Positions 17,165 to 39,854 are shown, counted from the stretch's first letter. The stretch: DNA of 64,000 nucleotides from Candidatus Nanoarchaeia archaeon (GCA_041653395.1 JBAZFK010000005.1:93-64092), one strand, 5' to 3'. Program-made: numbers and translations. The notes: generated from the sequence alone by a model not told the origin.

Positions 17165-17177
17165 ATTACAATTAATT

Positions 17178-19684: not shown

Positions 19685-19882
19685 ACACTCTTCTCTCTCT
19701 GCAAGTATTTTAAGCTCCTTCGCTCAAGCTCAGAGAGCATTAAAAAACTTGCTGCCACAGTATAACACAGTGTTTGGCACCGCTCGAGAAGAAAAGCCTT
19801 CTATTCTTTCCTTGACTGACGTGCCCAAACCCCGGATTTTTTCAACGAAAGTCTTTGATTGAAAAAATCGGAGGTTTGTAAA

Positions 19883-20119: not shown

Positions 20120-20219
20120 GCACTTCTTTACTAATATTAAATTGGCTTCGCCTGTGTTATAGGCTCGCTCTTCGAGCTCGCCAAAGAATTTTTAAGTAAA
20201 TAATATTAAATAAAAATAT

Positions 20220-21503: not shown

Positions 21504-21528
21504 AATTAAAAATAATTGATACTACTAT

Positions 21529-22587: not shown

Positions 22588-22669
22588 GAAAGATATTAGA
22601 ATTAAACTATTATAAAAAGAATAAAATTATTCTTTTATTAGAATATATTATACACTAGTTAGTGTATTC

Positions 22670-23119: not shown

Positions 23120-23155
23120 AAAATAAAAAGACTTAAAGTTATATATAAATACAAT

Positions 23156-25105
23156 TTATTTTTTTCTTTTTGGTTTTTCAATTTTTTTTCCTTCAATTAA
23201 ATTATAATAATATAAATCAATTTTTTCAGAAAAATCATTAATTAAGTTTTGTTTACCAATAAAATCTTTAGCTTTGATTAAATTTCCTTCTAATAAAAAA
23301 TAACCAAATAAATCAAGTTCATCAAAAGCTATCAATTCATTAGTAATATTAATTTTTAACCTTTGTTCAATATAATCTATAAAGTCTTGATAATTTTCAA
23401 TTAAATCCCTAAAAATCATTAAATCATAAATATTTAAAGTTAAAAAATCTTTACTCTTATCAAAATAATCTTTATTAATGGATTTGATCTGATTTGAACA
23501 AGAAGTTAATGAAAAAAAGCTATCTGCATGGATAGATAATTTGAAAATTTTATTAAAATTTTCTTTTTTTAATCTAAATTTTTCTTTTCTTTTCTTTTTA
23601 TTATTTGAATCATAAAAAATAACTTCAGAATAGTTATTAATATAATCAAATGTTGAGTTAACCTGTTCAAATGCTTGATATATTGATTCATCAAAATCTT
23701 CTTTTGTTTGTTGTATTATATCAGAAACATCTGAAAATAATCTTCGTTTTTTTCCTTTAACTTCTACAATAAATAAAATATTATTTTTTATAAATAATAA
23801 ATCATTTTCATTTCCAAAAATATCATAATTATTTTGATAAAACTTGTCAGGGTTCAATATTTTTTCAAAACATTCTTTTACCTTATTTTCATAAAATTGG
23901 CCTTTTAACTTGAAATACAAACTTTTATCTGAAACTAAATTTTCAAATATTAATTTTAAATTTCTTAATAAATTTTGAGGTAAAAAACAATAATAATCAT
24001 TATTATATTTAATTAAAGGATTTGTTATAACTAAATCATAATCAAGTATTTTTTTCCATTTTTTATTATCTCCAAAATTTAAACTTATAAAATTTAAATA
24101 TTCTTTTTTAATGTTTTGGTTCAGATTTATTTTAAAATTTTCTTCATAATTTAATAATTCATAAGTTGCTTTTTTAATAAGTTCTGAATTATTTTTTTTA
24201 AACTCATCAATAGAATCTTTTTTAATTCGTTTTTTAGATTCTTCTCTAATAAGTTCAAGTGTTTTTGAATAAGATGAATACATAGTTTTTATATTATTAC
24301 TAATTTGGCTTATAATTTCATTTATTGTTTTTAAAAAAAATTCACTATTAAAAGTTGAATTAAAACAAGATTTAGTGTAATCCAATAGCTGAGTATTTAT
24401 TTCAGTATAATGAACAGCTTGTGCTTCACCTCTTACTATTAAATATGTTGATAAAATAATATGAAAACATAATTTTATTTCTTTAGATTCTTTTCCAGTT
24501 ATAAATATAGTATAATAAATTAAATCAAATTTAAATTTTTCAAGTAAGTTATATAAGTCATCAATTTTATTATTTTCTGCTTTTAAATTAAATTCAGATA
24601 TATTGTGTTTTAATATAAGTTTTTGTACTATTTCATAAATTATAGTTAATTCATCTTTATTTTTTCCGAGTTCATCACTAGTTTTTGTATTATATTTAAA
24701 AAATAAATCTGCTAATACTTTAAATGGATTTAATGTTAACAACATTTTTTCAATTTTATCTAAAGTATCATATAACTTCTGTTCATTTTCATTAGATATT
24801 TTTATTAATTCTTTTTCATCTAAATCACCCAATGATTTTTTAGATTCGTTTTTTAACATAATTTGTCTACCTTTTCTTGATATTTTAAAAGGACCTAATT
24901 GTTCTTCTTCATCAAAAATAATAGGCAAACTAATTTTATTATTTTTAATATCTAATTCTTTTTTTATTATTGATTTTGTAATTCTTAATTCAATTATTTT
25001 TTTATCAAGACATGTTTTTTTTTCTAATAAATTAACTAATTCTTCTTTTTCAATTTCATGATTTTTTTCTAAAATAATTTTTATATCATCTATTATTTTA
25101 ACCAC
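23156..25105 (-). CDS. Large AT-rich cargo protein with C-terminal PD-(D/E)xK/NERD-like nuclease domain
   Basis: G..YE....E, END.L......IVEVKG, Q catalytic-like pattern near the C-terminus. Confidence 0.55.
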   Translation of the reverse strand: MVKIIDDIKIILEKNHEIEKEELVNLLEKKTCLDKKIIELRITKSIIKKELDIKNNKISLPIIFDEEEQLGPFKISRKGRQIMLKNESKKSLGDLDEKELIKISNENEQKLYDTLDKIEKMLLTLNPFKVLADLFFKYNTKTSDELGKNKDELTIIYEIVQKLILKHNISEFNLKAENNKIDDLYNLLEKFKFDLIYYTIFITGKESKEIKLCFHIILSTYLIVRGEAQAVHYTEINTQLLDYTKSCFNSTFNSEFFLKTINEIISQISNNIKTMYSSYSKTLELIREESKKRIKKDSIDEFKKNNSELIKKATYELLNYEENFKINLNQNIKKEYLNFISLNFGDNKKWKKILDYDLVITNPLIKYNNDYYCFLPQNLLRNLKLIFENLVSDKSLYFKLKGQFYENKVKECFEKILNPDKFYQNNYDIFGNENDLLFIKNNILFIVEVKGKKRRLFSDVSDIIQQTKEDFDESIYQAFEQVNSTFDYINNYSEVIFYDSNNKKKRKEKFRLKKENFNKIFKLSIHADSFFSLTSCSNQIKSINKDYFDKSKDFLTLNIYDLMIFRDLIENYQDFIDYIEQRLKINITNELIAFDELDLFGYFLLEGNLIKAKDFIGKQNLINDFSEKIDLYYYNLIEGKKIEKPKRKK

Positions 25106-25138
25106 AGTTAATAAACATAAATAATAATTAAAAAATCT

Positions 25139-25444
25139 TTAGTATTTGAGCATCATTTCTCTTTTCATGTGTCTTAATGCTTTGAAAAGTAACTTCTCGT
25201 TTAGGTTTAGCTTGCTAGCTATTGTATTCATAGTTAGCTCTCCGCCGTAGTTCTTGACTACATAATAAGCTAAAGCTCCTATTGTTAGGCCTAGTTCTCT
25301 GCCTTGTGTAAGGTTGTTCTGCAAGGCTTTGAAGTATAACCTTTTTACTTCGCTTACTTGGTACTCTTTTAGCTCCAATTTATCGCACATTATATCTATA
25401 TCTGGCTCATTTAATCCGAATCTTCTCTCATTGTAGTTTGTCAT
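25139..25444 (-). CDS. Single TFB (TFIIB) cyclin-repeat protein; probable start ATG 25444
   Basis: IDIMCDKLEL....V.EVKRLY.KA...NL.QGR......GA..Y.V.K..G...T...IA parallels the TFB cyclin repeat. Confidence 0.7.
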   Translation of the reverse strand: MTNYNERRFGLNEPDIDIMCDKLELKEYQVSEVKRLYFKALQNNLTQGRELGLTIGALAYYVVKNYGGELTMNTIASKLNLNEKLLFKALRHMKREMMLKY

Positions 25445-25446
25445 AT

Positions 25447-25683
25447 TTACCCGCACCTCACTGAGCAAGCCATCCTATTATTTAGTATAGCTCTGCCGTT
25501 TATTATTTTTGCTTCACTCATTGTTTGCCTGAAGTTGCATCTCCAAGCATTATACAAGCTCTCCTTAGTTGCCTTCACGTTCCCACCATAATAGATGTAA
25601 TCATCTACTACATGACCGCAGTGATAGCAGTAGTACTCGTATCTCCCTTTCATCATTACTATGTCGCAGTTAGGACAAAGCAT
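25447..25683 (-). CDS. TFB-type N-terminal zinc-ribbon protein
   Basis: CPNC...YYCYHCGHVVDD.I..GG; GGAGGTG upstream; stop lies 2 nt before the cyclin-repeat ATG. Confidence 0.6.
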   Translation of the reverse strand: MLCPNCDIVMMKGRYEYYCYHCGHVVDDYIYYGGNVKATKESLYNAWRCNFRQTMSEAKIINGRAILNNRMACSVRCG

Positions 25684-25971
25684 AAATTAACACCTCCATT
25701 TAATCGAATGCTTTTTTTTAACCCTATTACAGCTTAACAAAAAAATTATTCAAAAACTCTTATTCAATAGTTTTAAAAGATTAATCTGACGTTGTCTATG
25801 CTTTTATTATTTCCCTGCTGAAATAAAGTATAGTTGTCATCATAATAATATAGTGTGTTAAAGTAATATATAAAGACTTAGTTTTAGTATTTTAGTTTGT
25901 GTTTCATTATTAATTAATTGTAAGTGAATAAATAAAGAAAGATTTTTATTTTATAAAAAAAATAATCTTTT

Positions 25972-26286
25972 ATGAAGTCTGGTATTTTTAAGGGTATTTT
26001 GTTTGGTTGTGTAGCAGGAATAATTGATATTATTCCTATGTTTTTACAGGGTTTGACTTGGGATGCTAACCTTAGTGCTTTCTCAATGTGGATAGTTATT
26101 GGATTCTTATTATCAATATCAACACTAAAAATTAACGGAACACTTAAAGGATTATTAATTTCATTCCTTGTATTACTTCCTAATGCTTTTATTATAGGTT
26201 GGAAAGAACCAGTTAGTTTAATCCCAATTGGGATAATGACACTAATACTTGGAAGTGGATTAGGATATATATTAAACAAGAAATAA
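25972..26286 (+). CDS. Small four-TM membrane protein
   Basis: Four hydrophobic segments; GIIDIIPM...W...SAF..W pattern. Confidence 0.6.
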   Translation: MKSGIFKGILFGCVAGIIDIIPMFLQGLTWDANLSAFSMWIVIGFLLSISTLKINGTLKGLLISFLVLLPNAFIIGWKEPVSLIPIGIMTLILGSGLGYILNKK

Positions 26287-26327
26287 AAAATGTAAATAAC
26301 CTTAAAGAAATAATTTAATTAAAAAAT

Positions 26328-26528
26328 TTAGCATTTCAGTTTTCTTTTCATCTTAAATTCTTCATTTTTTCTTTTTACATATTCTATTACTTGAATTGGA
26401 ACTCTTTTGCCAATATACCTGATGATTTCAGGCCTAACTTTTCCGTTTACTCTTATGCTCATAGCTACATAGTAGTAGACTCCGAGTTTTCCGTTTTTTA
26501 GCGTGACTATTTTCTTTTTAATATACAT
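26328..26528 (-). CDS. Small basic beta-sheet DNA-binding protein (possible excisionase/regulator)
   Basis: YYYVAMSIRVNGKVRPEIIRYIGK, a three-stranded DNA-binding type motif I recall from MGE small proteins. Confidence 0.55.
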   Translation of the reverse strand: MYIKKKIVTLKNGKLGVYYYVAMSIRVNGKVRPEIIRYIGKRVPIQVIEYVKRKNEEFKMKRKLKC

Positions 26529-26781
26529 AAAAATTATTGGGATTAAAGAAGTATTTAAACAAGGATCAACAGCTTCTTATTGTTCTAAACTGCGGATTTA
26601 TGGATTTGCTAAATTGAAGGCTTGCTGTTTAATTTTGTTCGTTTTTAACAAATTCGCGAGCCGCGAATTTCTTATTTTTGCATAAAATAAACAATCAAGC
26701 CTTACAGTCAAGAAATCCATAAATACAGGAAATAAAGGTGTAAGAAAATACTTTTAAATAGAATTGATTATTTATTTTGAT

Positions 26782-28707
26782 ATGAATAAACAAATATTAT
26801 TACTGATTTTTGTATTATTAATTTCAAAATCTTTCTCTTTAGATTGCCAATATACTCAAATTTTTTCAATTACTCAAGATGAATCTTTTTTAGTTTATGA
26901 TGAAAACCAATCTATTATTGGCAGTCCTTTAAATATAACTGATATAACTGCAGGAAGCCAATATTTCACTGGAGGAACACAAAGAAATTTAGCCACTCTT
27001 AAAATACATAATCCTTATTATTTTGATTTAAATGTTACTTTAAATGTTGATGTATCTGGAAGTTGCAGTACACGTTCAAACATTATTAAATTCCAGATAA
27101 AAGCAAGGGATTATTATTTAGTTGAAACTGATGGTGGATGGGGTCAAACTCCTTGTACTATAATTATAAATGAGCATACTTTGTCTTATCATGTTGATTA
27201 TCCTTTTAATGCTTCAGAGAGCATATTGGCCATTAATAGAAATTCTATTATTTGTAAAATATGCGAATCTGGTTTAAATTGCACTGACAATGGGGGATTT
27301 TGTTCTAATTCTAACCAATGTGGAGGAGGTTATTGTATAGAAGGAATATGTAATAATCAATCTTTATGTTATAATGATGATTGTAAATGCTCCTTAGATA
27401 AAATTCAATGTTCTACTAATGATAAATGTGTTATAAAAACATCATTAGAAGTTGGTTCCAAACCTATTTGCAGAGTAGAAGAATGTAAAACTAATTATAT
27501 TAATCAAAGTACAGGAATATGCGCCAATGAACCAAAATTAGATGGGCAACAGTGTGAATTTGGTTTAGAATGTTCTGGAAGTTATTGTATTAAAAAAAGA
27601 TGCAATACTCAACTAACATGTTATAATAATGATTGTGAATGTTCTACAAATGAAATTCAAAAATTAGATAATACTGATTGTGTTTTAATGGGTTCAGCAA
27701 TTATTGATATGGTTCCTTTATCGGGAGATCCAAGAGAATGCAAAACTAACTATATAAATAATGAAACCGGAAGATGTTCTAAAACTCCTGAAACAATAAG
27801 AAATGAAAATCTATCATTAATAGGATTATTAATTCTAACAGGAATAATAATATTTTATATTATCACAAGAATAGTAATTAAAAATAAAAAAGATACTTCA
27901 ACAGTTGTATCTGATGAAGCAAATGCAATAGCTACGGCAACAGCAATAAGTGAAGGAGAAAAAAGGAAAACTATAGAATTAGATTTATCTGCTATAGAAA
28001 TAAGTTTATCTGCCGAAAAAGAAAAATATGAACAACAAAAAGATTTACTTAATTCTTATAATAAACAGATATTAAATGCTAGTTCAGTAATTAAAGATGC
28101 TGAAAAAGAACTTAATAAATTAAAAGATATAAAAACTGAAACTGAACTTGAAAAAAAATTAATTATAGAAAAACAAACTAGTTTACAAGAAGAGATTAAA
28201 ATTCAAAATAATATTAGAGCAAATTTGAAAAAACAAAAAGAAAAAACAAAAGAGTTAATTGAATCGGAAAATTTAGATATTCAAAAGAAAACTAAGGAAT
28301 TAAGATTAAGACATGAAAAATTAGAAAAATATACTGAAGTAAGAAAAAGCACAATCTTACATAATGATGTTTGGGAATGGAGAAATCCCAATATGAGATA
28401 TTATCCTTGCTATGTAAATCACGGAAAAAAAACAGATATTTTAATTCATAGGGACCAAGCAGAGAAAAAGATATTTAAAAAATATGTTAATTGGTTTAAT
28501 GAAAATTATTTGAATAAAAAGTATAAAGATTTAGTTGTACATCATATAGATGCGAATCCTGATAATTATAGAATTAATAATTTAGCTGTTATAACTCAAA
28601 TGCAGCATAATGAAATAAAACCTGAAAATATAATATTTGGTAATTTAAAATCAGGTATAAAAGAATTGAAGAGATTAAATATAAAACAACCACATTTAAA
28701 CATTTAA
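26782..28707 (+). CDS. Signal peptide + Cys-rich repeats + TM + coiled coil + C-terminal HNH endonuclease domain
   Basis: Two ~90 aa Cys-rich repeats (C..GGYC..GIC / CKTNYIN..TG.C); TM LIGLLILTGIIIFYII; VVHHIDANPDNYRINNL...QHN. ATG at 26782. Confidence 0.75.
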   Translation: MNKQILLLIFVLLISKSFSLDCQYTQIFSITQDESFLVYDENQSIIGSPLNITDITAGSQYFTGGTQRNLATLKIHNPYYFDLNVTLNVDVSGSCSTRSNIIKFQIKARDYYLVETDGGWGQTPCTIIINEHTLSYHVDYPFNASESILAINRNSIICKICESGLNCTDNGGFCSNSNQCGGGYCIEGICNNQSLCYNDDCKCSLDKIQCSTNDKCVIKTSLEVGSKPICRVEECKTNYINQSTGICANEPKLDGQQCEFGLECSGSYCIKKRCNTQLTCYNNDCECSTNEIQKLDNTDCVLMGSAIIDMVPLSGDPRECKTNYINNETGRCSKTPETIRNENLSLIGLLILTGIIIFYIITRIVIKNKKDTSTVVSDEANAIATATAISEGEKRKTIELDLSAIEISLSAEKEKYEQQKDLLNSYNKQILNASSVIKDAEKELNKLKDIKTETELEKKLIIEKQTSLQEEIKIQNNIRANLKKQKEKTKELIESENLDIQKKTKELRLRHEKLEKYTEVRKSTILHNDVWEWRNPNMRYYPCYVNHGKKTDILIHRDQAEKKIFKKYVNWFNENYLNKKYKDLVVHHIDANPDNYRINNLAVITQMQHNEIKPENIIFGNLKSGIKELKRLNIKQPHLNI

Positions 28708-28748
28708 TTTTTTTCTTTTATATACATCTTTGTTCCCATTAGTATTTC

Positions 28749-29897
28749 ATGTTAGATGATGCTCCTGCTTTATTGAAAGATAAGAATTTCTTGGATGTTT
28801 TGCATAATGAATGGAATAAAAGGATAGTTGGAGAGATAACTGCTAGGGAAATAATCTTTGCTATGGGCTTAGGCGGATGCCTTTGCTTAAATGCTCAAAA
28901 GACAAGCAATAACTTGATAGTTAACAGCAAGAGCGGTTCAGGAAAAGACTACCTTACCACTCAAGTATTAAACATTATTCCAGGAAAAGAGAGCAAATGG
29001 ATTAAAAGGACTAGAATAACTAAAACTGCGTTCACTTATTGGCATAATAGCACTATTGAGCCTAACTGGACATGGAACAATAAGATATTTTACGGAGAAG
29101 ATATGAATAGTGAAATGATTAACAGTGATGTTTTCAAAGTAATATGCTCAGGAGAAAACTACTCTACTATTGTTAAGGATCAGAAAGCTATTGATTTAAA
29201 GATTAATGGCAAGCCTAGTATTATTATCACTGCAGCCAAAGCTATTTTGGAGGAAGAGTTACTTAGAAGGTTTGCAGTGTTAAATCTTGATGAATCTAAA
29301 GAGCAAGATGACTTAATCATTGACTTTCATTCTAAGGCTGCAATGAATGAAGGCCTGCTAAACTATGATGAATCGGTAATGAAAGCTCTTGATGGATTAA
29401 AACCTGTCAGTGTAATTATTGATTTCGCTGACAAATTCGGCAAATACTTCAAGGAAATGAACGCTAATGTAATAGTCAGAACTAACTACAACAGATTTAT
29501 TGACTTAATCAAATACAGTGCAGTATTATTTCAGCATCAAAGGTTTTGGTTAGATGGAAACACTATCAAAGCTGAGCCTGAAGATTATGACAGAGCTATT
29601 GAATGGTTTACTCATTTATTCAAAAACCAATGTTTAATACCAATCACTAAAGACCAGCAAAAACTTATTCAAATAGTTCAAACATTAGGCCAGACCACAG
29701 TGGATGAAATCATATCAGAAGTAACCTTTGCAGGAAGAACATGGACATACACTAACCTGAACTTACTAACTGAGAAAGGATTACTAGAAAAAACAAGAAT
29801 AGATGACGAAACAGGCAATTCAAGAAAAAAATTAGACTCTTATATTGCAACAGGTCAGACAAAAATTAAACTTCCTTACTGGGTAGACTTAGAGTAA
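28749..29897 (+). CDS. AAA+/MCM-like P-loop helicase-type replication protein with C-terminal winged helix
   Basis: IVGE, SKSGSGKD Walker A, ED Walker B-like, LLRRF arginine finger, C-terminal wHTH. Confidence 0.75.
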   Translation: MLDDAPALLKDKNFLDVLHNEWNKRIVGEITAREIIFAMGLGGCLCLNAQKTSNNLIVNSKSGSGKDYLTTQVLNIIPGKESKWIKRTRITKTAFTYWHNSTIEPNWTWNNKIFYGEDMNSEMINSDVFKVICSGENYSTIVKDQKAIDLKINGKPSIIITAAKAILEEELLRRFAVLNLDESKEQDDLIIDFHSKAAMNEGLLNYDESVMKALDGLKPVSVIIDFADKFGKYFKEMNANVIVRTNYNRFIDLIKYSAVLFQHQRFWLDGNTIKAEPEDYDRAIEWFTHLFKNQCLIPITKDQQKLIQIVQTLGQTTVDEIISEVTFAGRTWTYTNLNLLTEKGLLEKTRIDDETGNSRKKLDSYIATGQTKIKLPYWVDLE

Positions 29898-30536
29898 TTA
29901 TTCAAAATAAGTTTGAATTAATGCTTTTATTTCGGAATAGGTATTCTTATTTCTTATTTTTATATCATTATCATGAACATATTTTTTTATAACTAAAGTT
30001 TTTGCCATTTCACTGTTTGCTTTAGAATATTCAGGTAAAGAATTTATTATTTTTGCTGTATTCATTAATAGGTTAATATATTCTTTTTCTTTTTCATTAT
30101 TTAAATTTGTATTTTCATTAAATTCTGAATCTCTTAATTCGCTTATATCATTATTTATCATTTTTAATATAAGATTAAATATTTTTTCGTCAAATTCAAT
30201 ATTTTTATTGATTAAATATTCTTCTAATACATAATTATCAATTGTTTTTGTTATATTTTTTTCAGTTAAAAATTGAATTGACATTTCTCTTGCTTTTTTA
30301 ATCATAGAATTACCATAAAAAATATTTTCTTCTTTATCTTCTGGAAAATCTTCATTACTTGTGTCAGGAAATTTGTATACAAAATCATCTTTGAAAACAT
30401 AATACTCTTCAGTTCCATCTTCTTTTTTTATGAAAAATTTTAAATTTGAATTAATTTCGTCTAAATCAGAAATAGATTTAACATAAATTTCATTTTCTGC
30501 AACATGAGTTATACCTGAAATTTCTTTAAAAACCAT
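29898..30536 (-). CDS. Hypothetical AT-rich cargo protein
   Basis: 212 aa ORF; no motif recognised. Confidence 0.5.
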   Translation of the reverse strand: MVFKEISGITHVAENEIYVKSISDLDEINSNLKFFIKKEDGTEEYYVFKDDFVYKFPDTSNEDFPEDKEENIFYGNSMIKKAREMSIQFLTEKNITKTIDNYVLEEYLINKNIEFDEKIFNLILKMINNDISELRDSEFNENTNLNNEKEKEYINLLMNTAKIINSLPEYSKANSEMAKTLVIKKYVHDNDIKIRNKNTYSEIKALIQTYFE

Positions 30537-30669
30537 AAGATTTAATGAAAATTTGCTAATTAAAAATATATTTATCTACTACTTTAAAAGTGATAGTTTT
30601 ATGGATAAAGAGCTTGAGTAATTTATTCTAATAATAAAGTTAAAATATATGAAAGAAATATTATAATCT

Positions 30670-31332
30670 ATGAGTATTATAGATATTGGTTCATTATTTG
30701 GAGGATTTATTTGGAATTCATTACCAGAGACTGCATTAATTTTTATCATATATTCTTACCTTCTTTATACTCTTTTTTTTAAGAATAGTAAATTCGCTGA
30801 AATAAAGAATCTAGAAGAAGCTGGAAGTTTAATTCTGATATTCTTGAATTTATATATATTAATAATACCTTTAATATTGGGAATATATTATTTAAGTTAT
30901 ATTATTTATGATAATATATTACCAAGTACTTTAACATTTAGCATAACTGATTCGATTATAGCAATAATAATGTTTACTTTTTTTCCTTATCAAATCAAAA
31001 AATCTATGGAAAGAAAAAAGAAAAAATTCTCTTTGGGAGATTGGTTATTATTAATTAATATAATTTATTCAGGGGTATTTATTTTTTCATTAATAAATAT
31101 TATTTATACATCAAATATTTCTACTAAAATAAATTCTCAATTTATGGGAACTAGCATAATTTTAGCAATTATATTTATTATAAATTTGGGATATCTTCAT
31201 GTATTGTCTATAAATTTAAAACAAATGAAAATAAACAAATTAAATATATTAAATATTATTTATATAATAATATTTCAAATTTTATCATCAATAATATTTT
31301 GCTTTTTACATTGGAATTTAAAGATTATATAA
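30670..31332 (+). CDS. Hypothetical multi-pass membrane cargo protein
   Basis: Six hydrophobic segments. Confidence 0.5.
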   Translation: MSIIDIGSLFGGFIWNSLPETALIFIIYSYLLYTLFFKNSKFAEIKNLEEAGSLILIFLNLYILIIPLILGIYYLSYIIYDNILPSTLTFSITDSIIAIIMFTFFPYQIKKSMERKKKKFSLGDWLLLINIIYSGVFIFSLINIIYTSNISTKINSQFMGTSIILAIIFIINLGYLHVLSINLKQMKINKLNILNIIYIIIFQILSSIIFCFLHWNLKII

Positions 31333-31336
31333 AAAA

Positions 31337-31783
31337 TTAATTATCTCTATCCCATATAAGTAGATCATAAACAGTTATAATAAATAAAGGAGTAATGAAA
31401 ATTGCTAGTGAAAAAATAATTACTTCTAAACCTTCAAGAGGTATTAACTTATGCAATGTACCTATAGTAAATAATGCTATTAATAACCATCCAAATTTAA
31501 AATTATTTATTTTTGTTTTTTTTATTTTTTCAAAATTTGAATGGATTACATAAAATTCTTTATTAAATTCAGTAATTGATTTCCAATTAATTTTTTGAGA
31601 TTTATGATTAAAACATTCAAATTGAGATTTTTCTTTTTCTTTTATTTTATTAGAAACTATTCTAAATAAAGTATAATATTGAAAAAAGAAAGCAGAAGCT
31701 ATGAATCCTAAAATTGCTAAATATTTTATATCCAACATACTTAAAAAAATATCCATTTCAGTCATTTTACCACTTATTTTCAT
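31337..31783 (-). CDS. Hypothetical three-TM cargo protein
   Basis: Hydrophobic segments at both ends; start uncertain. Confidence 0.45.
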   Translation of the reverse strand: MKISGKMTEMDIFLSMLDIKYLAILGFIASAFFFQYYTLFRIVSNKIKEKEKSQFECFNHKSQKINWKSITEFNKEFYVIHSNFEKIKKTKINNFKFGWLLIALFTIGTLHKLIPLEGLEVIIFSLAIFITPLFIITVYDLLIWDRDN

Positions 31784-32057
31784 TATTCTCCGAATTTAAT
31801 GTAGATCCTGATATTATTCCTATTAATCCTCCAACAATTGCTCCACCTGATCCTGCTATAGCTGCTCCCATTAAAGCCCCAGTTACTCCTGCAATAAATG
31901 CTTTTTCTTGTGCAGATGAAAAAACAGTTCTATTAAGTTTCATTTCTTTTCCACAACAGTTACATTTCACTGGATCTTTTTTGGTAGATATTGGCCCTTC
32001 AACTTCGCATCCTTTATTATTACATAATTCATTAGTACAAAGATAATAATTTTTCAT
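31767..32057 (-). CDS. Small Cys-rich zinc-ribbon plus glycine-zipper protein
   Basis: CTNELC...CNCC followed by GxxGAxxGAxxxGxxGAxxGGxxG. Confidence 0.6.
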   Translation of the reverse strand: MKNYYLCTNELCNNKGCEVEGPISTKKDPVKCNCCGKEMKLNRTVFSSAQEKAFIAGVTGALMGAAIAGSGGAIVGGLIGIISGSTLNSENNENKW

Positions 32058-32125
32058 AAAATTAATTATCCTAAGCTAATTTAAAATATTATGTTTTAAT
32101 ATTACTTTAAAACTATTATTTATTT

Positions 32126-32254
32126 ATGGATAAAGAACTTGAGCAATTTTTTCAACCCTGGGAGTTAAAACTCTTAGAGATAATTGAAGAAGCTAAAAAA
32201 GAAAAAATTGATAAAACTAATAAAAAGTTAAATAATGATATTATAACACATTAA
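32126..32254 (+). CDS. Short 42 aa ORF (MDKELEQFFQPWELK...), with a truncated 5' copy at 30601
   Basis: Read manually; first 24 nt duplicated at 30601-30624 where codon 7 is TAA. Confidence 0.35.
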   Translation: MDKELEQFFQPWELKLLEIIEEAKKEKIDKTNKKLNNDIITH

Positions 32255-32304
32255 AATTTAATAAAGGATGTTTTTATATATACTTTAAATTATTACTTTA
32301 TTAT

Positions 32305-33030
32305 ATGAGTTCAATAAAAGATCTAAAAGAAAATATTCTTTTAAGAGAAAATTTACTTAAAGTTCAAAAAGAAGATTATGAGAAAACTAAATTTTTAGGG
32401 TATGAAGTAGGTACTTTTGAATTATATAATAATTATATTGAATCTTTGAGTATTGCATTCAAAAAACTTGTATCTGATAAAAATTTAAAAATATCATTTA
32501 ATGATTTGGCAATAAATAAAAAATGGTTAGATATTATTGGTCAAATGCAAGATATATTAACTGCTGCTTATCCTATGATAAATGATGAAACTTCAGATCC
32601 TTTATTAATGGGTTATTTATATGTTAAGTTTTATCAATCAGGATTTGGTCATGCAATTAGTTTTTTTAGAAAATTGGCTATTATTATAAATAATGTATAT
32701 AAATTTAATTCTAAAAAAATTAATTTTTTATCAGATAAAAATTGTATAGATATTTTAATTAAATATGATTTAACTTACAAATTTATTTTGTCTAATTTTG
32801 ATAATGAAATACGAAATTGTATTGCGCATGAAGATTATATTATAAATAAAGATAACACAATAAAATTTATGACTTCTGAAGGAAAAATAATTAAAAAAAC
32901 TTTTGTAGAAATAGGACTTATGGATTCATATTTTTCATTTTTGAATAATGCTTTAATATTTGTAGTAACAAATTATGAACTTAAACTTCTTAAAAGACAT
33001 CTTAATGATAAGGTATCTAAAAATAAATGA
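32305..33030 (+). CDS. HEPN-domain cargo protein
   Basis: D.EIRNCIAH.DY RxxxxH motif. Confidence 0.6.
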   Translation: MSSIKDLKENILLRENLLKVQKEDYEKTKFLGYEVGTFELYNNYIESLSIAFKKLVSDKNLKISFNDLAINKKWLDIIGQMQDILTAAYPMINDETSDPLLMGYLYVKFYQSGFGHAISFFRKLAIIINNVYKFNSKKINFLSDKNCIDILIKYDLTYKFILSNFDNEIRNCIAHEDYIINKDNTIKFMTSEGKIIKKTFVEIGLMDSYFSFLNNALIFVVTNYELKLLKRHLNDKVSKNK

Positions 33031-33156
33031 TTTTTTTATATATAGAAAATTCAGGAAACATTTATATAAAATCGCTGACTTGTTTGATCTTTGTAAATAA
33101 AAAAACATGCTAAAAATTGGGGCGATTGACCTTTTGTGTCTCGCCTGCTCTCAGCG
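33031..33156 (+). repeat. Right-end/att repeat copy A (TATA-like box, ATCGC motif, left arm, tRNA-derived core)
   Basis: Aligns with 34324-34450 and 39315-39441; TTTAT box to TGCTC core spacing is 85 nt in both A and C. Confidence 0.85.
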
Positions 33157-33290
33157 AAAAAATCATATATACATTTATTAATATTAAAGTAGTATTTAAA
33201 GAGTTTTTAAATGAGACAAAACCAAAATACTTTATTGGTGCAAATTATAAAAGAGAAAAGTTTTAAAGTATAATTACGTCTTCTTTAATT

Positions 33291-33473
33291 ATGGATTTAA
33301 GAGAAAATTTTCTTACTATTTATGCAGATTTACCTTTAGGATTAAGAAAAGAGGTGATTTTAATATTAGATAAGGAACCAATAAGTTGGAATGTAGCTTA
33401 TATTGAAATTTTTAACAAAACTGAAAAAAGTAAAAAAATTCTTAAAGAATTAAAGGAAATGAATATAATATGA
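33291..33473 (+). CDS. Small helical protein, gene 1 of a three-gene protease module
   Basis: 60 aa; overlaps the next gene (ATGA). Confidence 0.7.
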   Translation: MDLRENFLTIYADLPLGLRKEVILILDKEPISWNVAYIEIFNKTEKSKKILKELKEMNII

Positions 33474-33685
33474 GTGAAACTATTTCTGAAAAAGAAAAGC
33501 AGCTTGTTATTTTTAGATTAAGCAAAATGCCGGTAAACAAAAAAATATCTATAGGTTCTGAAGGTCAATTTGATAAAGATGAATTAATAGATCATGTTAA
33601 AAATGAAGATTCAGTGGGTAAAAAAATAGTTGAAATTCAAATGGCTTTCTTAAGAGCAATGAAATCAGGTAAATTATATGCCTAA
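33470..33685 (+). CDS. Small protein, gene 2 of the module; probable distant paralogue of gene 1
   Basis: 71 aa; shared helix-P-hairpin-helix-(G/S)KKI pattern. Confidence 0.7.
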   Translation: MSETISEKEKQLVIFRLSKMPVNKKISIGSEGQFDKDELIDHVKNEDSVGKKIVEIQMAFLRAMKSGKLYA

Positions 33686-34316
33686 ATATTTAATTACAAG
33701 ACCAGAACATGACGATACTACTTTTTTGCTTTCTAGTTTTATGAATCAAACAATATCTTTTGCTAAAAATAGGGGCTTTGAAGTTTTTGATTTGCATAGA
33801 GAAAAAGCTACCAAATTTAATTTTGAAGGATTAATTAAAAAAAATCCTGAAATCATTGTTTTAAATGGGCATGGGGCTATAAATATGGTAACAGGTCATA
33901 AAAATAAACCTCTCTTAATAGCTGGAATTAATGATTATACTCTTAAATCAAAGACAATTTATGCTATTTCTTGTCAATCTGGAGTTGGATTGGGACCTAG
34001 CAGTATTAAAGAAGGTGCTTTAAGTTATACAGGTTATGTTAATGATTTTATTCTATATTATACTCCAAAATTACTTAGTAAACCTTTAAATGATGATACT
34101 TTAAAATTTTTCCTCGAACCTTCTATAATTCTTATTGAATCTATATTAAAAGGTAACTCAATAAACGATTCTCACATTAAATGTAAAGAAAAAATGATAA
34201 ATAACTTAAAGAAAATGATGAGTAGTGGTGAAGAAGATTATAATGATATGGCTCAATATTTATGGTGGGATATACAAAATTTTAGGACATTTACACAAAC
34301 TGAAATTTTAGATTAA
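33678..34316 (+). CDS. Caspase-fold (clan CD, CHAT/gingipain-like) cysteine protease
   Basis: IIVLNGHG (His65) and IYAISCQSG (Cys99) after hydrophobic strands; no signal peptide. Confidence 0.75.
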   Translation: MPKYLITRPEHDDTTFLLSSFMNQTISFAKNRGFEVFDLHREKATKFNFEGLIKKNPEIIVLNGHGAINMVTGHKNKPLLIAGINDYTLKSKTIYAISCQSGVGLGPSSIKEGALSYTGYVNDFILYYTPKLLSKPLNDDTLKFFLEPSIILIESILKGNSINDSHIKCKEKMINNLKKMMSSGEEDYNDMAQYLWWDIQNFRTFTQTEILD

Positions 34317-34323
34317 CACATTA

Positions 34324-34450
34324 TTTTTTTATACATAGAAAAATCACAAAACATTTATTATAAAATCTCTGTTTATTTGATTTTTGTAAATAAAAAAATG
34401 ACCTAAAAAATAGGGTGTTATCAGTTTCTATGATTGCTAAGTTAGAGCAA
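34324..34450 (+). repeat. Right-end/att repeat copy B (degenerate core)
   Basis: TTTTTTATACATAGAAAAATC...ACATTTATTATAAAATCTCTG...TTTGATTTTTGTAAATAAAAAAA aligns to copy A; core-like TGCTAAGTTAG at 34435. Confidence 0.7.
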
Positions 34451-34496
34451 TTTATTTTCCTTAATATTTATAAATATAGAATATATCAAATTGCTG

Positions 34497-35207
34497 ATGT
34501 TAAAAGTTTTAGTAATGGCAAGTGGAGGAGCTACTAGTGGTAGATACTTATTTGATAATAATCCTGGAACTTATGAAATTGCTGGAGTAGTTTTAAGTAA
34601 GAATTCAGCTAGTGGTATTGAACATTTTGAAAATAGGGGTTTTTTGAAAGGTAAGAATTTGTTTGTCTGTGATGTTTATGATTTTTATAAAAGTAAAGGC
34701 AAAAATTCTTTAAAAGATTCACAGACTAGAATTGAGTATGAAGCTAGTATTGAAGATGCAATTAAGGATGTTAGTTTTGATGTTATTGCTCTTAGTGGAT
34801 ATATGCTTAGAATGTTCACTATTCATAATAAGTATAATACTTTAAATGTTCATCCTGCAGATTTACGAATCATTAATGATAAATGTGAAAGAAAGTATAC
34901 TGGAGATAATGCTGTTACTTGTGCAATAAGAGCAGGAGAGAAAGAGACACGTTCTAGTATTCACTTAGTTACTGATGAAGTTGATGGAGGTCCATTAATT
35001 GTAGTATCAGACAGTGTTAAAGTTCCAAGCTGGAATAATAGTAATCTTGAAACTATTGCTAATAATGTTCAGGAAGAAATGAAAATTAAATGCGATAATC
35101 CTGCATATATGTGGACAATACAAAACTTGGCAAATGAAAACTTAAAAATAGAAAATAAAGTTATTTATTATAAAAATAAAATATTACAATCTCCAATCAT
35201 CTTATAA
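34497..35207 (+). CDS. purN: Phosphoribosylglycinamide formyltransferase-like protein
   Basis: VLVMASG, LSGYM, NVHPADL (NxH), SSIHLVTDEVDGGP (catalytic Asp). Confidence 0.8.
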   Translation: MLKVLVMASGGATSGRYLFDNNPGTYEIAGVVLSKNSASGIEHFENRGFLKGKNLFVCDVYDFYKSKGKNSLKDSQTRIEYEASIEDAIKDVSFDVIALSGYMLRMFTIHNKYNTLNVHPADLRIINDKCERKYTGDNAVTCAIRAGEKETRSSIHLVTDEVDGGPLIVVSDSVKVPSWNNSNLETIANNVQEEMKIKCDNPAYMWTIQNLANENLKIENKVIYYKNKILQSPIIL

Positions 35208-35315
35208 AATTAAAATTTTTTTTTAAACAATAAATATAAATTTTTCCTTCTAAATTAAAATACAACTTATTAGTGATTACAAATATTATTTAAATACTAT
35301 AGGATAAAAATATAT

Positions 35316-38300
35316 ATGCCTCTGGATGAAATAGCAATACGTGCCATCAAAAGAATAGAAATAGAACGATTAATTCCGGACACTAGAGCGCAAAAACTTA
35401 AGACAGAATTAAATCTTAAAGGATACTCAGTCACTGACTTAAAATGGCTTGATGTTTACACAATAAATGAGGCACTAACAAATCAGGAATCTGACTTAAT
35501 TGCGAAAAATCTTGCAATAGCATGCAATTATGAAAATGGAATCAAGATACACTCAGCTCACATTTATGAACCAGCAAGTATTCAGGGATTTGATCAAGCA
35601 ATAGAAACCGGCTTTTTGCCAGGAGTGACAGATAATATAGGAAAAACAGCAAAAATAGTAATAGAAGATACGCTGGAAAGAAAATTAAATGATGTTCAAG
35701 GAGTATATACTTCAAGATTACTTTTAATAAAAGGAATAACAGGTGAGCAAGCAAGAGAAATACCTTCATTATTAATTAATAAATTAATAGAAAGATCACA
35801 AATCAAGAACAATCATGAATATCTTAATGATCATGGAATGGGTGCAACAATACCTAAAGTAAATATAGATCATGAACCAAGAATTTTGGATGTTGATTTA
35901 GAATTGCAAGATGATGAATTAATAAAATTAGGAAAAGAAGGAATATATGATCCATTAACAAAAATGAGAAGAGGGCCTTTAGCGCTAGATATTGAATCAT
36001 TAAAATCAATAAAGGAATACTATAACAAAATAAGCAAGAAACCAACAGATATTGAATTAGAATCAATAGCTCAAACTTGGAGTGAGCATTGCAAGCACAG
36101 AATATTCAGCGGTTCTCTTGATGACATAACTGAAGGAATATTCAATAAACACATTAAAGGAGCAACTAATGCCATAAGGGCTGAACTAGGAGAGAACGAC
36201 TTCTGCACATCAGTATTCAGTGATAATTCAGGCGCAATAAAATTCAATGATATATTTAGTGTATGCTTCAAGAGCGAGACGCATAACAGCCCTTCAGCAC
36301 TAGACCCTTTTGGGGGAGCAATAACTGGAATAGTTGGTGTTAATAGAGATACCCTAGGATTTGGATTAGGTGCGCTTCCAGTAAATAATTCATATTACTT
36401 CATGTTCGGTGAACTCAATGATATGAATCGTTACTTTAAAAATAAGGAATTAACAGATGAGATACTCAGTTCAGAATCAATAATGAATGGAGTAATAGCC
36501 GGAGTTAATGCCGGAGGAAACCAGTCAGGAATACCAACAAATGTTGGAGGAATGTATATGCACTCATCTTACAGGGGAAAACCCTTAGTTTATGTAGGAA
36601 CTTCAGGAATAATACCAACAAATAAGATAGAAAAAAAAGCAAATCCTGGAGATTTAATAGTTGTGATTGGCGGACGTGTAGGCGCTGATGGAGTTCATGG
36701 TGCGACATTCTCAAGTGAGGCATTAACAAGCGGAAGTCCAGCAACAGCAGTGCAGATAGGGGATGCAATAACTCAGAAGAAACTAAGTGATTCTTTACTG
36801 AAAGAAGCAAGGGATCTAGAATTTTATACAAGCATAACAGACAATGGAGCTGGAGGATTATCATGCAGTGTTGCTGAAATGGCGCAGGAAAGCGGAGGAT
36901 TCACAGTAAATCTTAATAAAGTCCCGCTAAAATACGCAGGATTACAGCCATGGGAGATATGGATATCAGAATCGCAAGAGAGAATGACATTATCCGTGCC
37001 AAAAAATAAGATAGATAACTTCATGGAATTAATGAAGAAACATGATGTTGAAACAAGCATAATAGGAGAATTTACTAATTCAGGAAAAGCGCAAGTAAAT
37101 TACAATAATCAATTAATAATTAATCTTGACATGGACTTCCTTCATAATGGAGCTCCAAAGAAAATAATGAAAAGCGAGGAATTCCATAATACATTTGAAG
37201 AGCCTAATTTTGCAATGCCTGAACTAAACTCAACGCTTGATGAAATGCTATCAAGATATAATATCTGTAGCAAGGAGTTCATAAGCACCCAATATGATCA
37301 TGAAGTTCAGGGAGGCTCAGTAATCAAGCCATTAATTGGCAAAGGCAGGCTGCAATCAAAAGCAGGGGTTTACAAACCCTTATTAGATTCAAATAAAGGA
37401 GTAGTTGAAGCAAATGGGTTATGCCCAACATACAGCCAAATAGACACTTATGATATGGCTATGTGCTCAATAGATACAGCAATAAGGAACGCGTTAAGTG
37501 TTGGAGGCTCACTCAAACATATGGCCTTATTAGATAACTTCTGCTGGAATTCAAGTGAAGATCCAAAAATGCTTTATTTATTAAAAAGAGCAACAGAAGC
37601 ATGTTATGATTACGCAACGAAACTAAAAACTCCATTCATATCAGGAAAAGACAGCATGTTCAATGATTTCAAAGGCTATGACGCGAAAGGCAAACCAGTA
37701 AAAATATCAGTACTACCTACACTGAAAATACAAGCATGCGGAGTTATAGATGATGTTAATAAGTGCATAACTCATGAAGCAAAATTTGAAAATGACCTTG
37801 TCTATGTTATAGGCGAAACATTTAATGAATTAGGAGGAAGCGAGTATTTTAGGATGAAAGGAAATCATGTTGGAAATAATGTGCCAAAAGTTAGAATAGA
37901 ACAGGCAATAAAGACTTATAATTCATTAGAGCAAGCAATAAATAATGAATTATTAGTGTCATGCAATCCAGTAAATATTGGAGGGCTTGGTGTAGCATTA
38001 TCAGAAGCATCATTAGGAGGAAAGATAGGAATGAATATTGATATTAATGGAATAAACAGCAACCTACGCGATGATTTCTTATTATTCAGCGAGTCACAAT
38101 CAAGATTTGTTGTTACAGTAAACCCTGAACTTAAAGAAGAATTCGAAAATACAATGCAAGGTATTTACTGTCAGCAGATAGGCACTGTAGAAGGGGATTC
38201 ATTAATTATTAACAATGGAAGTAAAAACTTAATAAATATGAAAGTGACTGAACAATTAAACGCTTATAAGAAAACTTTTGCCAACAAAATGAGCGTTGCT

Positions 38301-38342
38301 GGCTGGGATAAAGAATCTTACATGCAAGGTGATTGGTTATGA
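35316..38342 (+). CDS. purL: FGAM synthase PurL (~1000 aa form with N-terminal PurS-like region)
   Basis: AQTWSEHCKH, SDNSG, K.ETHNSPSALDPFGGA.TG, DGVHGAT, TDNGAGGLS, SESQERM, QYDHEVQG, ISGKDS. Confidence 0.96.
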   Translation: MPLDEIAIRAIKRIEIERLIPDTRAQKLKTELNLKGYSVTDLKWLDVYTINEALTNQESDLIAKNLAIACNYENGIKIHSAHIYEPASIQGFDQAIETGFLPGVTDNIGKTAKIVIEDTLERKLNDVQGVYTSRLLLIKGITGEQAREIPSLLINKLIERSQIKNNHEYLNDHGMGATIPKVNIDHEPRILDVDLELQDDELIKLGKEGIYDPLTKMRRGPLALDIESLKSIKEYYNKISKKPTDIELESIAQTWSEHCKHRIFSGSLDDITEGIFNKHIKGATNAIRAELGENDFCTSVFSDNSGAIKFNDIFSVCFKSETHNSPSALDPFGGAITGIVGVNRDTLGFGLGALPVNNSYYFMFGELNDMNRYFKNKELTDEILSSESIMNGVIAGVNAGGNQSGIPTNVGGMYMHSSYRGKPLVYVGTSGIIPTNKIEKKANPGDLIVVIGGRVGADGVHGATFSSEALTSGSPATAVQIGDAITQKKLSDSLLKEARDLEFYTSITDNGAGGLSCSVAEMAQESGGFTVNLNKVPLKYAGLQPWEIWISESQERMTLSVPKNKIDNFMELMKKHDVETSIIGEFTNSGKAQVNYNNQLIINLDMDFLHNGAPKKIMKSEEFHNTFEEPNFAMPELNSTLDEMLSRYNICSKEFISTQYDHEVQGGSVIKPLIGKGRLQSKAGVYKPLLDSNKGVVEANGLCPTYSQIDTYDMAMCSIDTAIRNALSVGGSLKHMALLDNFCWNSSEDPKMLYLLKRATEACYDYATKLKTPFISGKDSMFNDFKGYDAKGKPVKISVLPTLKIQACGVIDDVNKCITHEAKFENDLVYVIGETFNELGGSEYFRMKGNHVGNNVPKVRIEQAIKTYNSLEQAINNELLVSCNPVNIGGLGVALSEASLGGKIGMNIDINGINSNLRDDFLLFSESQSRFVVTVNPELKEEFENTMQGIYCQQIGTVEGDSLIINNGSKNLINMKVTEQLNAYKKTFANKMSVAGWDKESYMQGDWL

Positions 38343-39190
38343 ATAATTACATACATTTAGAAAAATGGGTAAATCATCAAGAAGGACCTAACGCATTAGT
38401 GCTTTATGGTGAAGGAATAAATTGCGACAGGGAAACAGCTTATGCATTAAACAAAGCAGGGGCAAACCCTAATGTAATGCATATTAATGAATTAACAAAA
38501 AAATCTGAAGTATTAAATAATTACCAGATACTAGTTGTGCCTGGAGGATTCTCATATGGTGATGATTTAGGCTCAGGACTAGTCTTTGGCAAAAATCTTC
38601 TAAAATTAGGAAATAAATTAAAAGACTTCATTGAGGAGGGTAAAGCAGTAATAGGAATATGCAACGGCAATCAAATATTAACTGTTGCTGGATTAATACC
38701 TGCATTGCAAGATATTATAGGTATACAGGAAGTATTCATGAGCAATAACACTAACGCTCGCTACACTTGTTTATGGAATCACTTAAAAATAGAAAACCAA
38801 ACACCTTATTTAAAGAATGTAAAAGATTTAATTTTACCCTGTGCTCATGGTGAAGGATTATACACAATGGCTCAAGAAACCTTGGATACATTAATCAAGA
38901 ACAAACAAGTAGTTCTTCGATTCACTAAACCTGATGGAATGCCAGCAAAGGGGCAATTCCCTTTCAGCCCGAATGGTTCTATGTATGATATTGCTGCAAT
39001 AACTAACACGAAAGGAAATGTCTTTGGAATAATGCCTCACCCAGAGAGATTTATAAACATGACACAACATCCTGAGTACGCGTTCATAAATGAAAAAAGC
39101 AAAAGAACAAAACAGCCACTTCCAAAAGAAGGGTCTGGGCTGCAGATATTCAAAAATATTGTGGATTACGCGAAGAATCTTAGCTTATAA
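38339..39190 (+). CDS. purQ: FGAM synthase glutaminase subunit PurQ (ATG 38339 overlaps the purL stop)
   Basis: G.NCDRET, PGGFSYGDDLG, GICNG.Q, AHGEG, PNGS, MPHPER. Confidence 0.96.
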   Translation: MNNYIHLEKWVNHQEGPNALVLYGEGINCDRETAYALNKAGANPNVMHINELTKKSEVLNNYQILVVPGGFSYGDDLGSGLVFGKNLLKLGNKLKDFIEEGKAVIGICNGNQILTVAGLIPALQDIIGIQEVFMSNNTNARYTCLWNHLKIENQTPYLKNVKDLILPCAHGEGLYTMAQETLDTLIKNKQVVLRFTKPDGMPAKGQFPFSPNGSMYDIAAITNTKGNVFGIMPHPERFINMTQHPEYAFINEKSKRTKQPLPKEGSGLQIFKNIVDYAKNLSL

Positions 39191-39314
39191 TACAATGATT
39201 ATTTATTCCAAAGATTACACCAAAGCCAAAAGGAGTTCTGAAGATTAAATAGCTGAGTACAATAATAATAATTGCAGGAATCCTGTTAATATTATATTAA
39301 AATAAATAAGTGAA

Positions 39315-39459
39315 TTTTTTATATATAGAAAATTCAGGAAATATTTATAAAAAATCGCTGTTTTGTTTGATTTAGCATATATAAAACTCACGCAAAAAGT
39401 GATAGCGAGTGACCTTTAGTTAGACGCGTGCTCTTAGCGGTCTAATAATAGTCACTCGC
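39315..39459 (+). repeat. Right-end/att repeat copy C: complete attP-like site with both inverted arms
   Basis: 13/13 match TGCTCTTAGCGGT (39429-39441 = 17251-17263), flanked by GCGAGTGAC (39405-39413) and GTCACTCGC (39451-39459); AATCGCTGTTTTGT at 39353-39366 = 17276-17289. Confidence 0.85.
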
Positions 39460-39685
39460 CCTTTCTCGTGAAGTTTAACTGTATCAAAAAAATGGGAAGA
39501 TTATAGTTCTAAAGTTAGAAATCTTATATCTTCTTATTGGGCAGCAAGTAAAAATTGTTGTTGTGTTTCATTATATTCAAATGAAATACCTAAAAATGAG
39601 GTAATTAAAATTTTCAAAATATTTTTTATTGGCAAATATAAAAAAATTATATTAAATAATATTAATTAATAATTACTTTTTTTTC

Positions 39686-39751
39686 CTTCTAAACAAGAAG
39701 AATATTAGGTATGCTACTGTTGAGAGCCAGTATCCTATTTCGAATTGTTTT
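39686..39751 (-). pseudogene. Remnant of the 3' end of the element AAA ATPase gene
   Basis: 66 bp with 2 mismatches to 21542-21607. Confidence 0.85.
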
Positions 39752-39833
39752 GTTTATAATAAGTTATAAATTAATTAAGAATGCTAGGTTCTACCTAGCT
39801 ATTAACTAAACAATTAGCTTCGCTTGTTAGTAG

Positions 39834-39854
39834 GGCTCGCTCTTCGAGCTCGCC
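39834..39854. repeat. 21 bp structured motif GGCTCGCTCTTCGAGCTCGCC, identical to 20162-20182
   Basis: Exact duplicate; both copies are preceded by a GCTTCGC motif. Confidence 0.85.

Follow-up and report, generated by a model that had tools for sequence, protein, structure and literature searches.

Prokaryotic immunity increasingly appears to use caspase-like proteases as central effectors, and to our knowledge all characterized ones are either fused to a large sensor or work with one as a partner. Here we describe three overlapping genes, P1, P2 and P3, in a 64,000-nucleotide stretch of DNA from a Candidatus Nanoarchaeia archaeon (GCA_041653395.1, JBAZFK010000005.1:93-64092; the whole stretch is hereafter called the window), the third of which encodes a predicted minimal, stand-alone cysteine protease of clan CD, the caspase/CHAT/gingipain clan. 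By analogy with known modules, we propose at about even confidence that this trio may constitute a protease-based three-part toxin-antitoxin, addiction or abortive-defense module.

The best structural match of P3 is SAVED-CHAT, which belongs, with PCaspase and its inhibitor PCi, to the Haliangium type III-B system (PDB 8tl0; bioRxiv 10.1101/2023.06.23.546230); it has the same fold and the same order of catalytic residues, His then Cys. TPR-CHAT/Csx29 of type III-E systems (7y84, 7zoq) is also among the structural matches. PCaspase and Csx29 systems share with the trio the logic of a protease encoded beside small partners, PCi being an inhibitor that is itself cleaved, and PCc-sigma and Csx30 being substrate-regulators. 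P3 differs from these CHAT systems in that it is a bare catalytic domain of 212 aa with no SAVED, TPR or other sensor, and no CRISPR, CD-NTase or sigma-factor genes lie nearby. The cassette that carries the trio is, furthermore, itself mobile, and P1 and P2 match no named family.

The fold and dyad positions of P3 are also those of the Arg/Lys-specific gingipains R and K (MEROPS C25), clostripain (C11) and the metacaspases and orthocaspases (C14B), and P3 has an invariant acidic residue past strand 1, presumably at the place where these enzymes have an S1 determinant. Relative to these proteases, P3 is about half the size or less, lacks a prodomain, an immunoglobulin-like or p10 extension and a signal peptide, and is only 9-16% identical in sequence.

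In gene order and sizes (small, small, larger effector) and in translational coupling, the trio resembles omega-epsilon-zeta-type modules. Like three-part toxin-antitoxin modules, it is a compact overlapping operon that is patchily distributed, sometimes multi-copy or decayed, and found in mobile contexts beside toxin-antitoxin genes. It departs from omega-epsilon-zeta in having a protease rather than a kinase or nuclease as its proposed toxin, and in small proteins whose conservation far exceeds that of typical antitoxins. A fourth likeness is to integrase-less cassettes flanked by attachment (att) sites, such as cis-mobilizable cassettes and tycheposon-type arrays: the window likewise holds a tRNA-Ser gene, an integrase and segments that end in a repeat arm plus a tRNA-3'-end core. 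The trio segment itself, as in cis-mobilizable cassettes, has no integrase, and in the closest relative of the window copy (locus L003) it is flanked by 145-nt repeats beginning within the 3' end of a tRNA-Asp gene. Unlike tRNA-site arrays, however, the cassette also occurs at many unrelated non-tRNA sites, between repeats of unrelated sequence, and for this reason no single integrase/att pair explains its spread.

An AlphaFold2 model of P3, built on a 29-sequence alignment, reached a predicted local distance difference test score (pLDDT) of 95.6 and a predicted template modeling score (pTM) of 0.92, and contains strands at residues 3-8, 35-40, 59-63, 93-97, 116-120 and 202-206. In Foldseek searches of the PDB, the top matches of this model were SAVED-CHAT, DdvA CHAT (8rw5), caspase-11 (6ns7), gingipain R (1cvr), TPR-CHAT and caspase-4, with probability 1.0 throughout and TM-scores of about 0.5-0.57. 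An orthologue from Omnitrophota (L080, searched as a fused model dominated by P3) matched the same families and, in addition, C11 proteases, with a probability of 0.94 for the C11 zymogen, and the viral library BFVD returned caspase, clostripain and metacaspase-like proteins for P3. With six strands in the model and probability-1.0 matches, obtained for two orthologues and from two libraries, the predicted structure conforms to the clan-CD fold, an alpha/beta/alpha sandwich whose six-stranded sheet typically has the order 2-1-3-4-5-6 with an antiparallel last strand.

The positions of the putative catalytic residues agree with this assignment. In the model, His65 of an NGHG motif lies two residues past strand 59-63 and Cys99 of a YAISC motif lies two residues past strand 93-97, which corresponds to the clan-CD order of His(-Gly) after strand 3 followed by Cys after strand 4. 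Across 228 full-length P3 members, taken from 97 close relatives and 150 best representatives, the His is present in 227 and the Cys in all 228; Gly flanks the His on both sides in every member (228/228), and Arg8-Pro9 is nearly invariant. The modeled structure thus shows P3 to have a clan-CD cysteine protease fold with canonical His-Cys positions, and, judging from the fold and the conservation of the dyad, P3 is very probably catalytically active. A first-pass annotation, made from the sequence alone, had already proposed this fold from the HG and SC motifs behind hydrophobic strands and had noted the lack of a signal peptide; the strands are now predicted where it placed them, and the N-terminus (MPKYLITRPEH) indeed contains no hydrophobic signal segment.

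Substrate preference may be read from the same alignment. The main S1 determinant that follows strand 1 is Arg in caspases and Asp in metacaspases. Residue 12 of P3, just past strand 1 and presumably at the place of this determinant, is Asp or Glu in 228 of the 228 members, and an invariant acidic residue at this place suggests, by analogy, that P3 prefers Arg or Lys at substrate position P1, cleaving after basic residues.

In contrast to its familiar fold, the sequence of P3 has no known family. A Pfam scan at E<=1 returned zero families for P3, neither CHAT (PF12770) nor Peptidase_C14, C25, C11 or C13; NCBIfam, PHROGs and PADLOC gave zero matches, and no peptidase emerged when PDB sequences were searched with a profile. 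Because no match was found in any of these collections, P3 is a new sequence family with a known fold. The family is sizeable: an exhaustive profile search yielded 2263 clusters at E<=1e-3, of which 1161 reach E<=1e-10. The best 150 clusters listed are mostly about 205-220 aa long and include no multidomain proteins, and the 97 close relatives span 207-221 aa, with a Pfam domain in none of them.

The overlaps between the three open reading frames (ORFs) amount to 4 nt (ATGA) for P1/P2 and 8 nt for P2/P3, in agreement with the first-pass description of three overlapping genes, and both are widely kept among other loci. The trio is the sole gene content of the 1293-bp segment that lies exactly between two direct repeat copies, A and B (Table 1). 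The 2-kb bin holding most of this segment has a guanine-cytosine content of 0.23, compared with 0.30-0.40 in most of the window outside an island at 18-36 kb. Upstream of P1, homology to L003 begins at position -43 (blastn), such that the final 43 nt of the leader are ~90% identical to those of this relative. A TATA-like sequence, TTTTAAAGTATAA, lies ~18-30 nt before the P1 ATG, a position that suggests a short-leader or leaderless archaeal transcript.

Table 1. Coordinates of the trio, the surrounding repeats and the associated tRNA and integrase genes, counted from the first letter of the window.
Feature	Positions	Strand	Evidence and remarks
tRNA-Ser(TGA)	17177-17262	+	ARAGORN, Rfam
tRNA-Ser 3' end, CCTGCTCTTAGCGG	17249-17262	+	att core (attL) of the integration hotspot
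Tyrosine integrase, 385 aa, C-terminal zinc ribbon	17323-18480	+	Pfam PF00589, E=3e-22
Repeat copy A	33021-33157	+	arm 33032-33125; tRNA-Ser-like core CCTGCTCTCAGCGA at 33144-33157
Cassette leader	33158-33290	+	alignment and blastn against L003
P1	33291-33473	+	60 aa ORF, no family match
P2	33470-33685	+	71 aa ORF, no family match
P3	33678-34316	+	212 aa ORF, minimal stand-alone clan-CD cysteine protease (predicted), dyad His65 and Cys99
Repeat copy B	34314-34450	+	arm 34325-34415; degenerate core ~34432-34450
Repeat copy C	39304-39440	+	arm from 39315; core CGTGCTCTTAGCGG at 39427-39440

P1 is invariant at F7, P15, R19, W33 and E39 and always ends in Ile-Ile, and P2 is invariant at V13, R16, G29 and G50. 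The fused AlphaFold model described below predicts a helix, a short helix, a beta hairpin and two helices for P1, and a helix, an LP loop, a beta hairpin and three helices for P2. For P1 and P2, as for P3, the Pfam, NCBIfam, PHROGs and PADLOC scans, among them scans of 39 P1 and 40 P2 members singly, returned nothing significant, which upholds the earlier remark that the system has no recognized family name. PDB sequence-profile searches with P1 and P2 likewise gave no meaningful match. Weak matches to DUF7675 (P1) and to DUF1380 and TBPIP (P2) fell well below the cut-offs and were rejected. The two small proteins had also been described as paralogous; the predicted secondary-structure layout is indeed shared, but since hhalign assigns the two profiles a probability of only 2.5% when each is built from 7 sequences, and of 2.9% when 39 (P1) and 40 (P2) are used, paralogy at the sequence level is not supported. 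The overlap found by hhalign spans 14-16 columns around an N-x-[TD]-x-x-G-KKI turn. In MAFFT alignments, the first helix of P2, at its N-terminus (KQLVIxRL), was repeatedly matched to the segment RKEVILIL in P1, a faint signal with which hhalign disagrees.

All of the first seven contexts that we collected contained the trio, with protein sizes of about 60, 70 and 213 aa. A pattern-based scan covering 185,579 species genomes identified 132 carriers, distributed over Nano-, Woese-, Pace-, Aenigm-, Undin-, Micr- and Marsarchaeota, many bacterial phyla from the candidate phyla radiation (CPR), and Omnitrophota; the trio is thus almost restricted to DPANN archaea, CPR bacteria and Omnitrophota. 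Hidden Markov models for P1, P2 and P3, run on the 80 best loci, found the genes in the same order and on the same strand in 79, the remaining locus ending at a contig edge, with E-values of 1e-19 to 1e-37 for the small-protein matches across loci. The trio is therefore conserved as a unit across both DPANN and CPR, as the first-pass reading of a three-gene module would have it. In a tree of the concatenated trio, Archaea and Bacteria split with only two label changes, and phyla are mixed on each side. Contigs from bins with unexpected labels (L028, L066, L070, L071, L085 and L087; Methanosarcinales, Gammaproteobacteria or 'uncultured archaeon') contain cassettes that cluster with DPANN and CPR copies, and mis-binning is the more likely source of these than true carriage.

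The trio behaves as a discrete unit at the DNA level. Neighboring genes are unrelated from locus to locus, and alignments of close relatives lose homology about 15-66 nt upstream of P1 and about 0-135 nt downstream of P3. One CPR genome has two copies, L057 and L067, that match at 98.4% identity along exactly 1240 bp and have different flanks. Flanking direct repeats were detected at 12 of 58 loci as compared with 3 of 172 shifted controls; these repeats are 24-145 nt long and 83-99% identical, differ in sequence at every locus, and are spaced 1135-1422 bp apart. These observations show that the cassette is a discrete mobile unit of about 1.1-1.3 kb which occurs at many unrelated sites, often between direct repeats. 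In L003, whose P3 is 85% identical to that of the window, the cassette follows tRNA-Asp and its 145-nt repeats are 96% identical; the right side carries the same arm as copy B of the window, followed by a true tRNA-Asp 3'-end core.

Several individual loci are informative in their own right. In the complete genome of archaeon GW2011_AR20 (L036), the 97-nt flanking repeat (5460-5556 and 6678-6774, 99% identical) can be read as coding sequence for the C-terminal part of a VanZ-like protein, and the 35 nt from the P3 stop to the right copy keep that frame; because repeat and spacer share this reading frame, the cassette here seems to travel with, or to have duplicated, the 3' end of a gene. The repeat that flanks the first of the two copies in the CPR genome (L057, 3218-3276 and 4562-4620) contains a terminator-like hairpin and is also present upstream of the second copy (L067, 5092-5206). 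The flanking repeat is thus a dispersed element in its own right, a hint that the cassette moves by recombination at repeats of this kind. A Woesearchaeota contig (L010) holds tandem cassettes at 2-775 and 1488-2520, the first of which meets the contig end. Decaying copies were also seen: P3 is split by frameshifts or stops in L035, L063 and L078, where P2 is intact, and P1 is also truncated in L035.

We weighed whether the trio might instead serve the ordinary physiology of its carriers, with P3 as a processing protease of the ultra-small episymbiotic lifestyle that matures or turns over cell proteins, and P1 and P2 as cofactors or chaperones, rather than a conflict system. Such a role would suit the near restriction to DPANN, CPR and Omnitrophota, the strong purifying selection on all three proteins, which extends even to comparisons between domains, and the absence of any relative from 2.9 million viral contigs. 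We nevertheless consider it improbable, since a gene set that is found in so few of the species genomes scanned, with phyla mixed within each domain of the tree, multiple or tandem copies in some genomes (L010; L057/L067), varied insertion sites with flanking repeats, and frameshifted copies is an accessory, mobile one.

Conversely, the fact that the mobile unit holds the trio alone, and is found between direct repeats at many different sites with no recombinase nearby, raises the idea that the trio moves itself: P1 and P2 would bind the cassette ends, and P3 would process DNA as a new type of Cys/His enzyme built on a flavodoxin- or resolvase-like scaffold. We regard this idea as very improbable, since the strong structural matches of P3 are peptidases throughout, every high-probability one belonging to clan CD. 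The sole match annotated as a recombinase was at rank 21 in BFVD, with a probability of 0.15, and there was none in the PDB top 50. The variable length and unrelated sequences of the repeats, moreover, fit att identity segments or repeat recombination and not a target duplication of fixed length, and no shared end motif was noticed by eye, without alignment, in nine repeat-to-gene flanks.

How, then, does the cassette move? The segment encodes no integrase, that of the window lying 15 kb upstream, and the cassette is for this reason at best mobilized in trans; presumably resident tyrosine integrases move it in this way, or it moves by recombination at the flanking repeats. Integrases that are 31-39% identical over their full length to that of the window (BLASTP) are found directly upstream of the trio in L001 and L005, and the L005 integrase sits just past a tRNA-Gly. 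This arrangement, and the position of the window trio at an att junction of an integrase-bearing array, would fit a regulatory switch of an integrative element, similar to ImmR/ImmA of ICEBs1 or to phage repressor/anti-repressor pairs, in which P1 and/or P2 are DNA-binding repressors of the element or the resident integrase, and a signal leads P3 to cleave them, releasing excision or transfer. Consistent with such a role, P2 has weak winged-helix-like matches (TBPIP in 2 of 40 members, E 0.009), and proteins with the small helix-hairpin-helix layout predicted for P1 and P2 could bind DNA. We think that this account is unlikely to hold, however: an integrase lies within 3 kb in only 2 of ~75 other loci (~97% are without one), and no family of the helix-turn-helix or ribbon-helix-helix type is matched at significance by the trio proteins. 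In addition, the mobile unit is complete with only 15-66 nt upstream, and there is therefore usually no element for the trio to regulate.

The window itself illustrates how the cassette is embedded. The arm of the repeats, ~100 nt long, contains the motif TTTTTTATAYATAGAAAAWTCASRAAAYATTTAT, which the 64 kb contain exactly three times (at 33032, 34325 and 39315) against a chance expectation of 0. Just past the arm, the 14-mer core CCTGCTCTTAGCGG recurs in copy A (33144) with 2 mismatches and in copy C (39427) with 1 mismatch; a search of the window for this core returned 3 matches, including the one at 17249, versus 0.07 expected, and in copy B the arm is present and the core only degenerate. 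Both here and in L003, with its 145-nt repeats, direct repeats thus take in the target tRNA's 3' end, and the first-pass proposal that copies A and B are att repeats stands. The sequence GCGATTGAC at 33122-33130 is, in addition, the reverse complement of GTCAATCGC at 17273-17281. Read from the tRNA, the order is tRNA-Ser (attL), an integrated element (E1) with its integrase, arm/core A, the trio, arm/core B, purN-like/purL/purQ, and arm/core C. Because the successive segments end in the same arm and tRNA-Ser core, and an integrase follows the tRNA, the window holds a tandem array of integrated elements at a tRNA-Ser hotspot. Copy A closes E1 as its right att site and at the same time bounds the trio cassette on the left, and copy B bounds the cassette on the right.

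E1 is an AT-rich element of ~16 kb (17262-33160) whose first gene is the integrase. Its genes include DUF4145 (20835-21503), a STAND/AAA NTPase (21529-22587) and YdjM (22670-23119), followed by genes for a NERD protein of 649 aa (23156-25105), a TFIIB-repeat protein (25139-25468) and an HNH protein of 647 aa (26764-28707), and as a whole E1 resembles a defense-rich island. The third att-bounded segment, between copies B and C, carries at 34491-39190 a purN-like formyltransferase (PF00551), purL (AIRS/AIRS_C/FGAR-AT linker, 1008 aa) and purQ (GATase_5); organisms of this type are usually without a purine-synthesis pathway, and these purine genes appear to be cargo of the same integration array. 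Two further direct repeats (39654-39751 vs 21510-21607, 87%; 39812-39854 vs 20140-20182, 81%) tie a non-coding stretch past copy C to sequences inside E1, among them the STAND NTPase gene's 3' end, and are probably remnants of an older copy of a similar element.

Read data were examined as Logan contigs of four runs, and the same strain as in the window was found in two further metagenomes. No clear empty site or circle of the cassette was found among these contigs. A short contig from the source run (X1), in which 33077 is joined to 34377 with 6 other letters between them, has the same depth as the main contig; it is most likely a further arm copy elsewhere in the genome rather than an excised form.

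Taken up again with this context, our proposal that the trio is a protease-based three-part toxin-antitoxin, addiction or abortive-defense module would work as follows. P3 would be an active protease whose unrestrained activity harms the cell. Translational coupling would have P1 and P2 made in a fixed proportion; the two probably form a pair by way of their beta hairpins, and this pair probably binds P3 and holds it in an inactive state. One partner may in addition serve as an autoregulator, or as an inhibitor or substrate that undergoes cleavage. If the cassette were lost, or infection or stress signaled, P3 would be freed, and would then cleave cell proteins and stop growth. The toxin-antitoxin or addiction form of this reading fits the data at least as well as the sensor-protease-substrate defense pathway suggested by the first-pass annotation.

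The genomic surroundings are in keeping with this proposal, being rich in defense, toxin-antitoxin and mobile-element genes, as the content of E1 shows for the window and the recurrent neighbor families (MmeI-type restriction-modification, HepT, HEPN, Fic/Doc, ParE, Bro-N, RadC and an integrase) show for other loci. The more specific link to gasdermins or type III-E CRISPR that had been drawn at first found no support: gasdermin, Cas7-11/gRAMP, Csx30/31 and sigma factors are absent from the genes called in the first contexts and from the recurrent families of the 80 loci.

A number of points weigh against the toxin-antitoxin proposal. Each defense or toxin-antitoxin neighbor recurs in only 2-4 loci (raw counts, 80 loci), PADLOC-DB v2 gave no match for P1, P2, P3 or the upstream ORF, and both the scarcity of nearby integrases and the lack of viral relatives noted above count on the same side. 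Archaeal and bacterial copies of P1 and P2 are 45-70% identical, which is unusually conserved for antitoxins. As a proxy for the complex, we used an Omnitrophota locus (L080) in which the three genes lie in one frame, reading its two stops as Gly and modeling the fusion as a single chain with AlphaFold, on a block alignment of 6 rows over P1, 41 over P2 and 46 over P3. Each domain folded well (mean pLDDT 90.3), but the model showed no confident interface between P1/P2 and P3; its pTM of 0.61 is roughly the value expected of P3 by itself and does not support a claim of contact.

A bolder version of the proposal, which we regard as doubtful in its entirety, would see in the trio an undescribed class of recombinase-less mobile protease module, nearly confined to ultra-small episymbionts and passed between Archaea and Bacteria. 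Its effector would be smaller than any other complete caspase-type effector known; two tiny proteins of new fold, joined as a heterodimer, would restrain it, and once released it would cleave after basic residues. The module would work in addiction or abortive infection, with a role as weapon or switch between symbiont and host as a further possibility.

Literature searches returned no published description of the trio cassette. With the system pared down to a bare catalytic domain of 212 aa and two small proteins of 60-70 aa, the cassette offers an unusually tractable model for how a caspase fold is restrained and released. Its mode of movement is also notable, as a unit of ~1.2 kb with no recombinase is found between long direct repeats that are specific to each locus. 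Few DPANN families of unknown function occur in bacteria (PMC8204110), and the trio is one of the few gene sets of this kind that are common to DPANN archaea and CPR bacteria. Given the near-clean split of its tree between Archaea and Bacteria and the mixing of phyla on either side, the cassette marks gene flow within and between these two ultra-small radiations.

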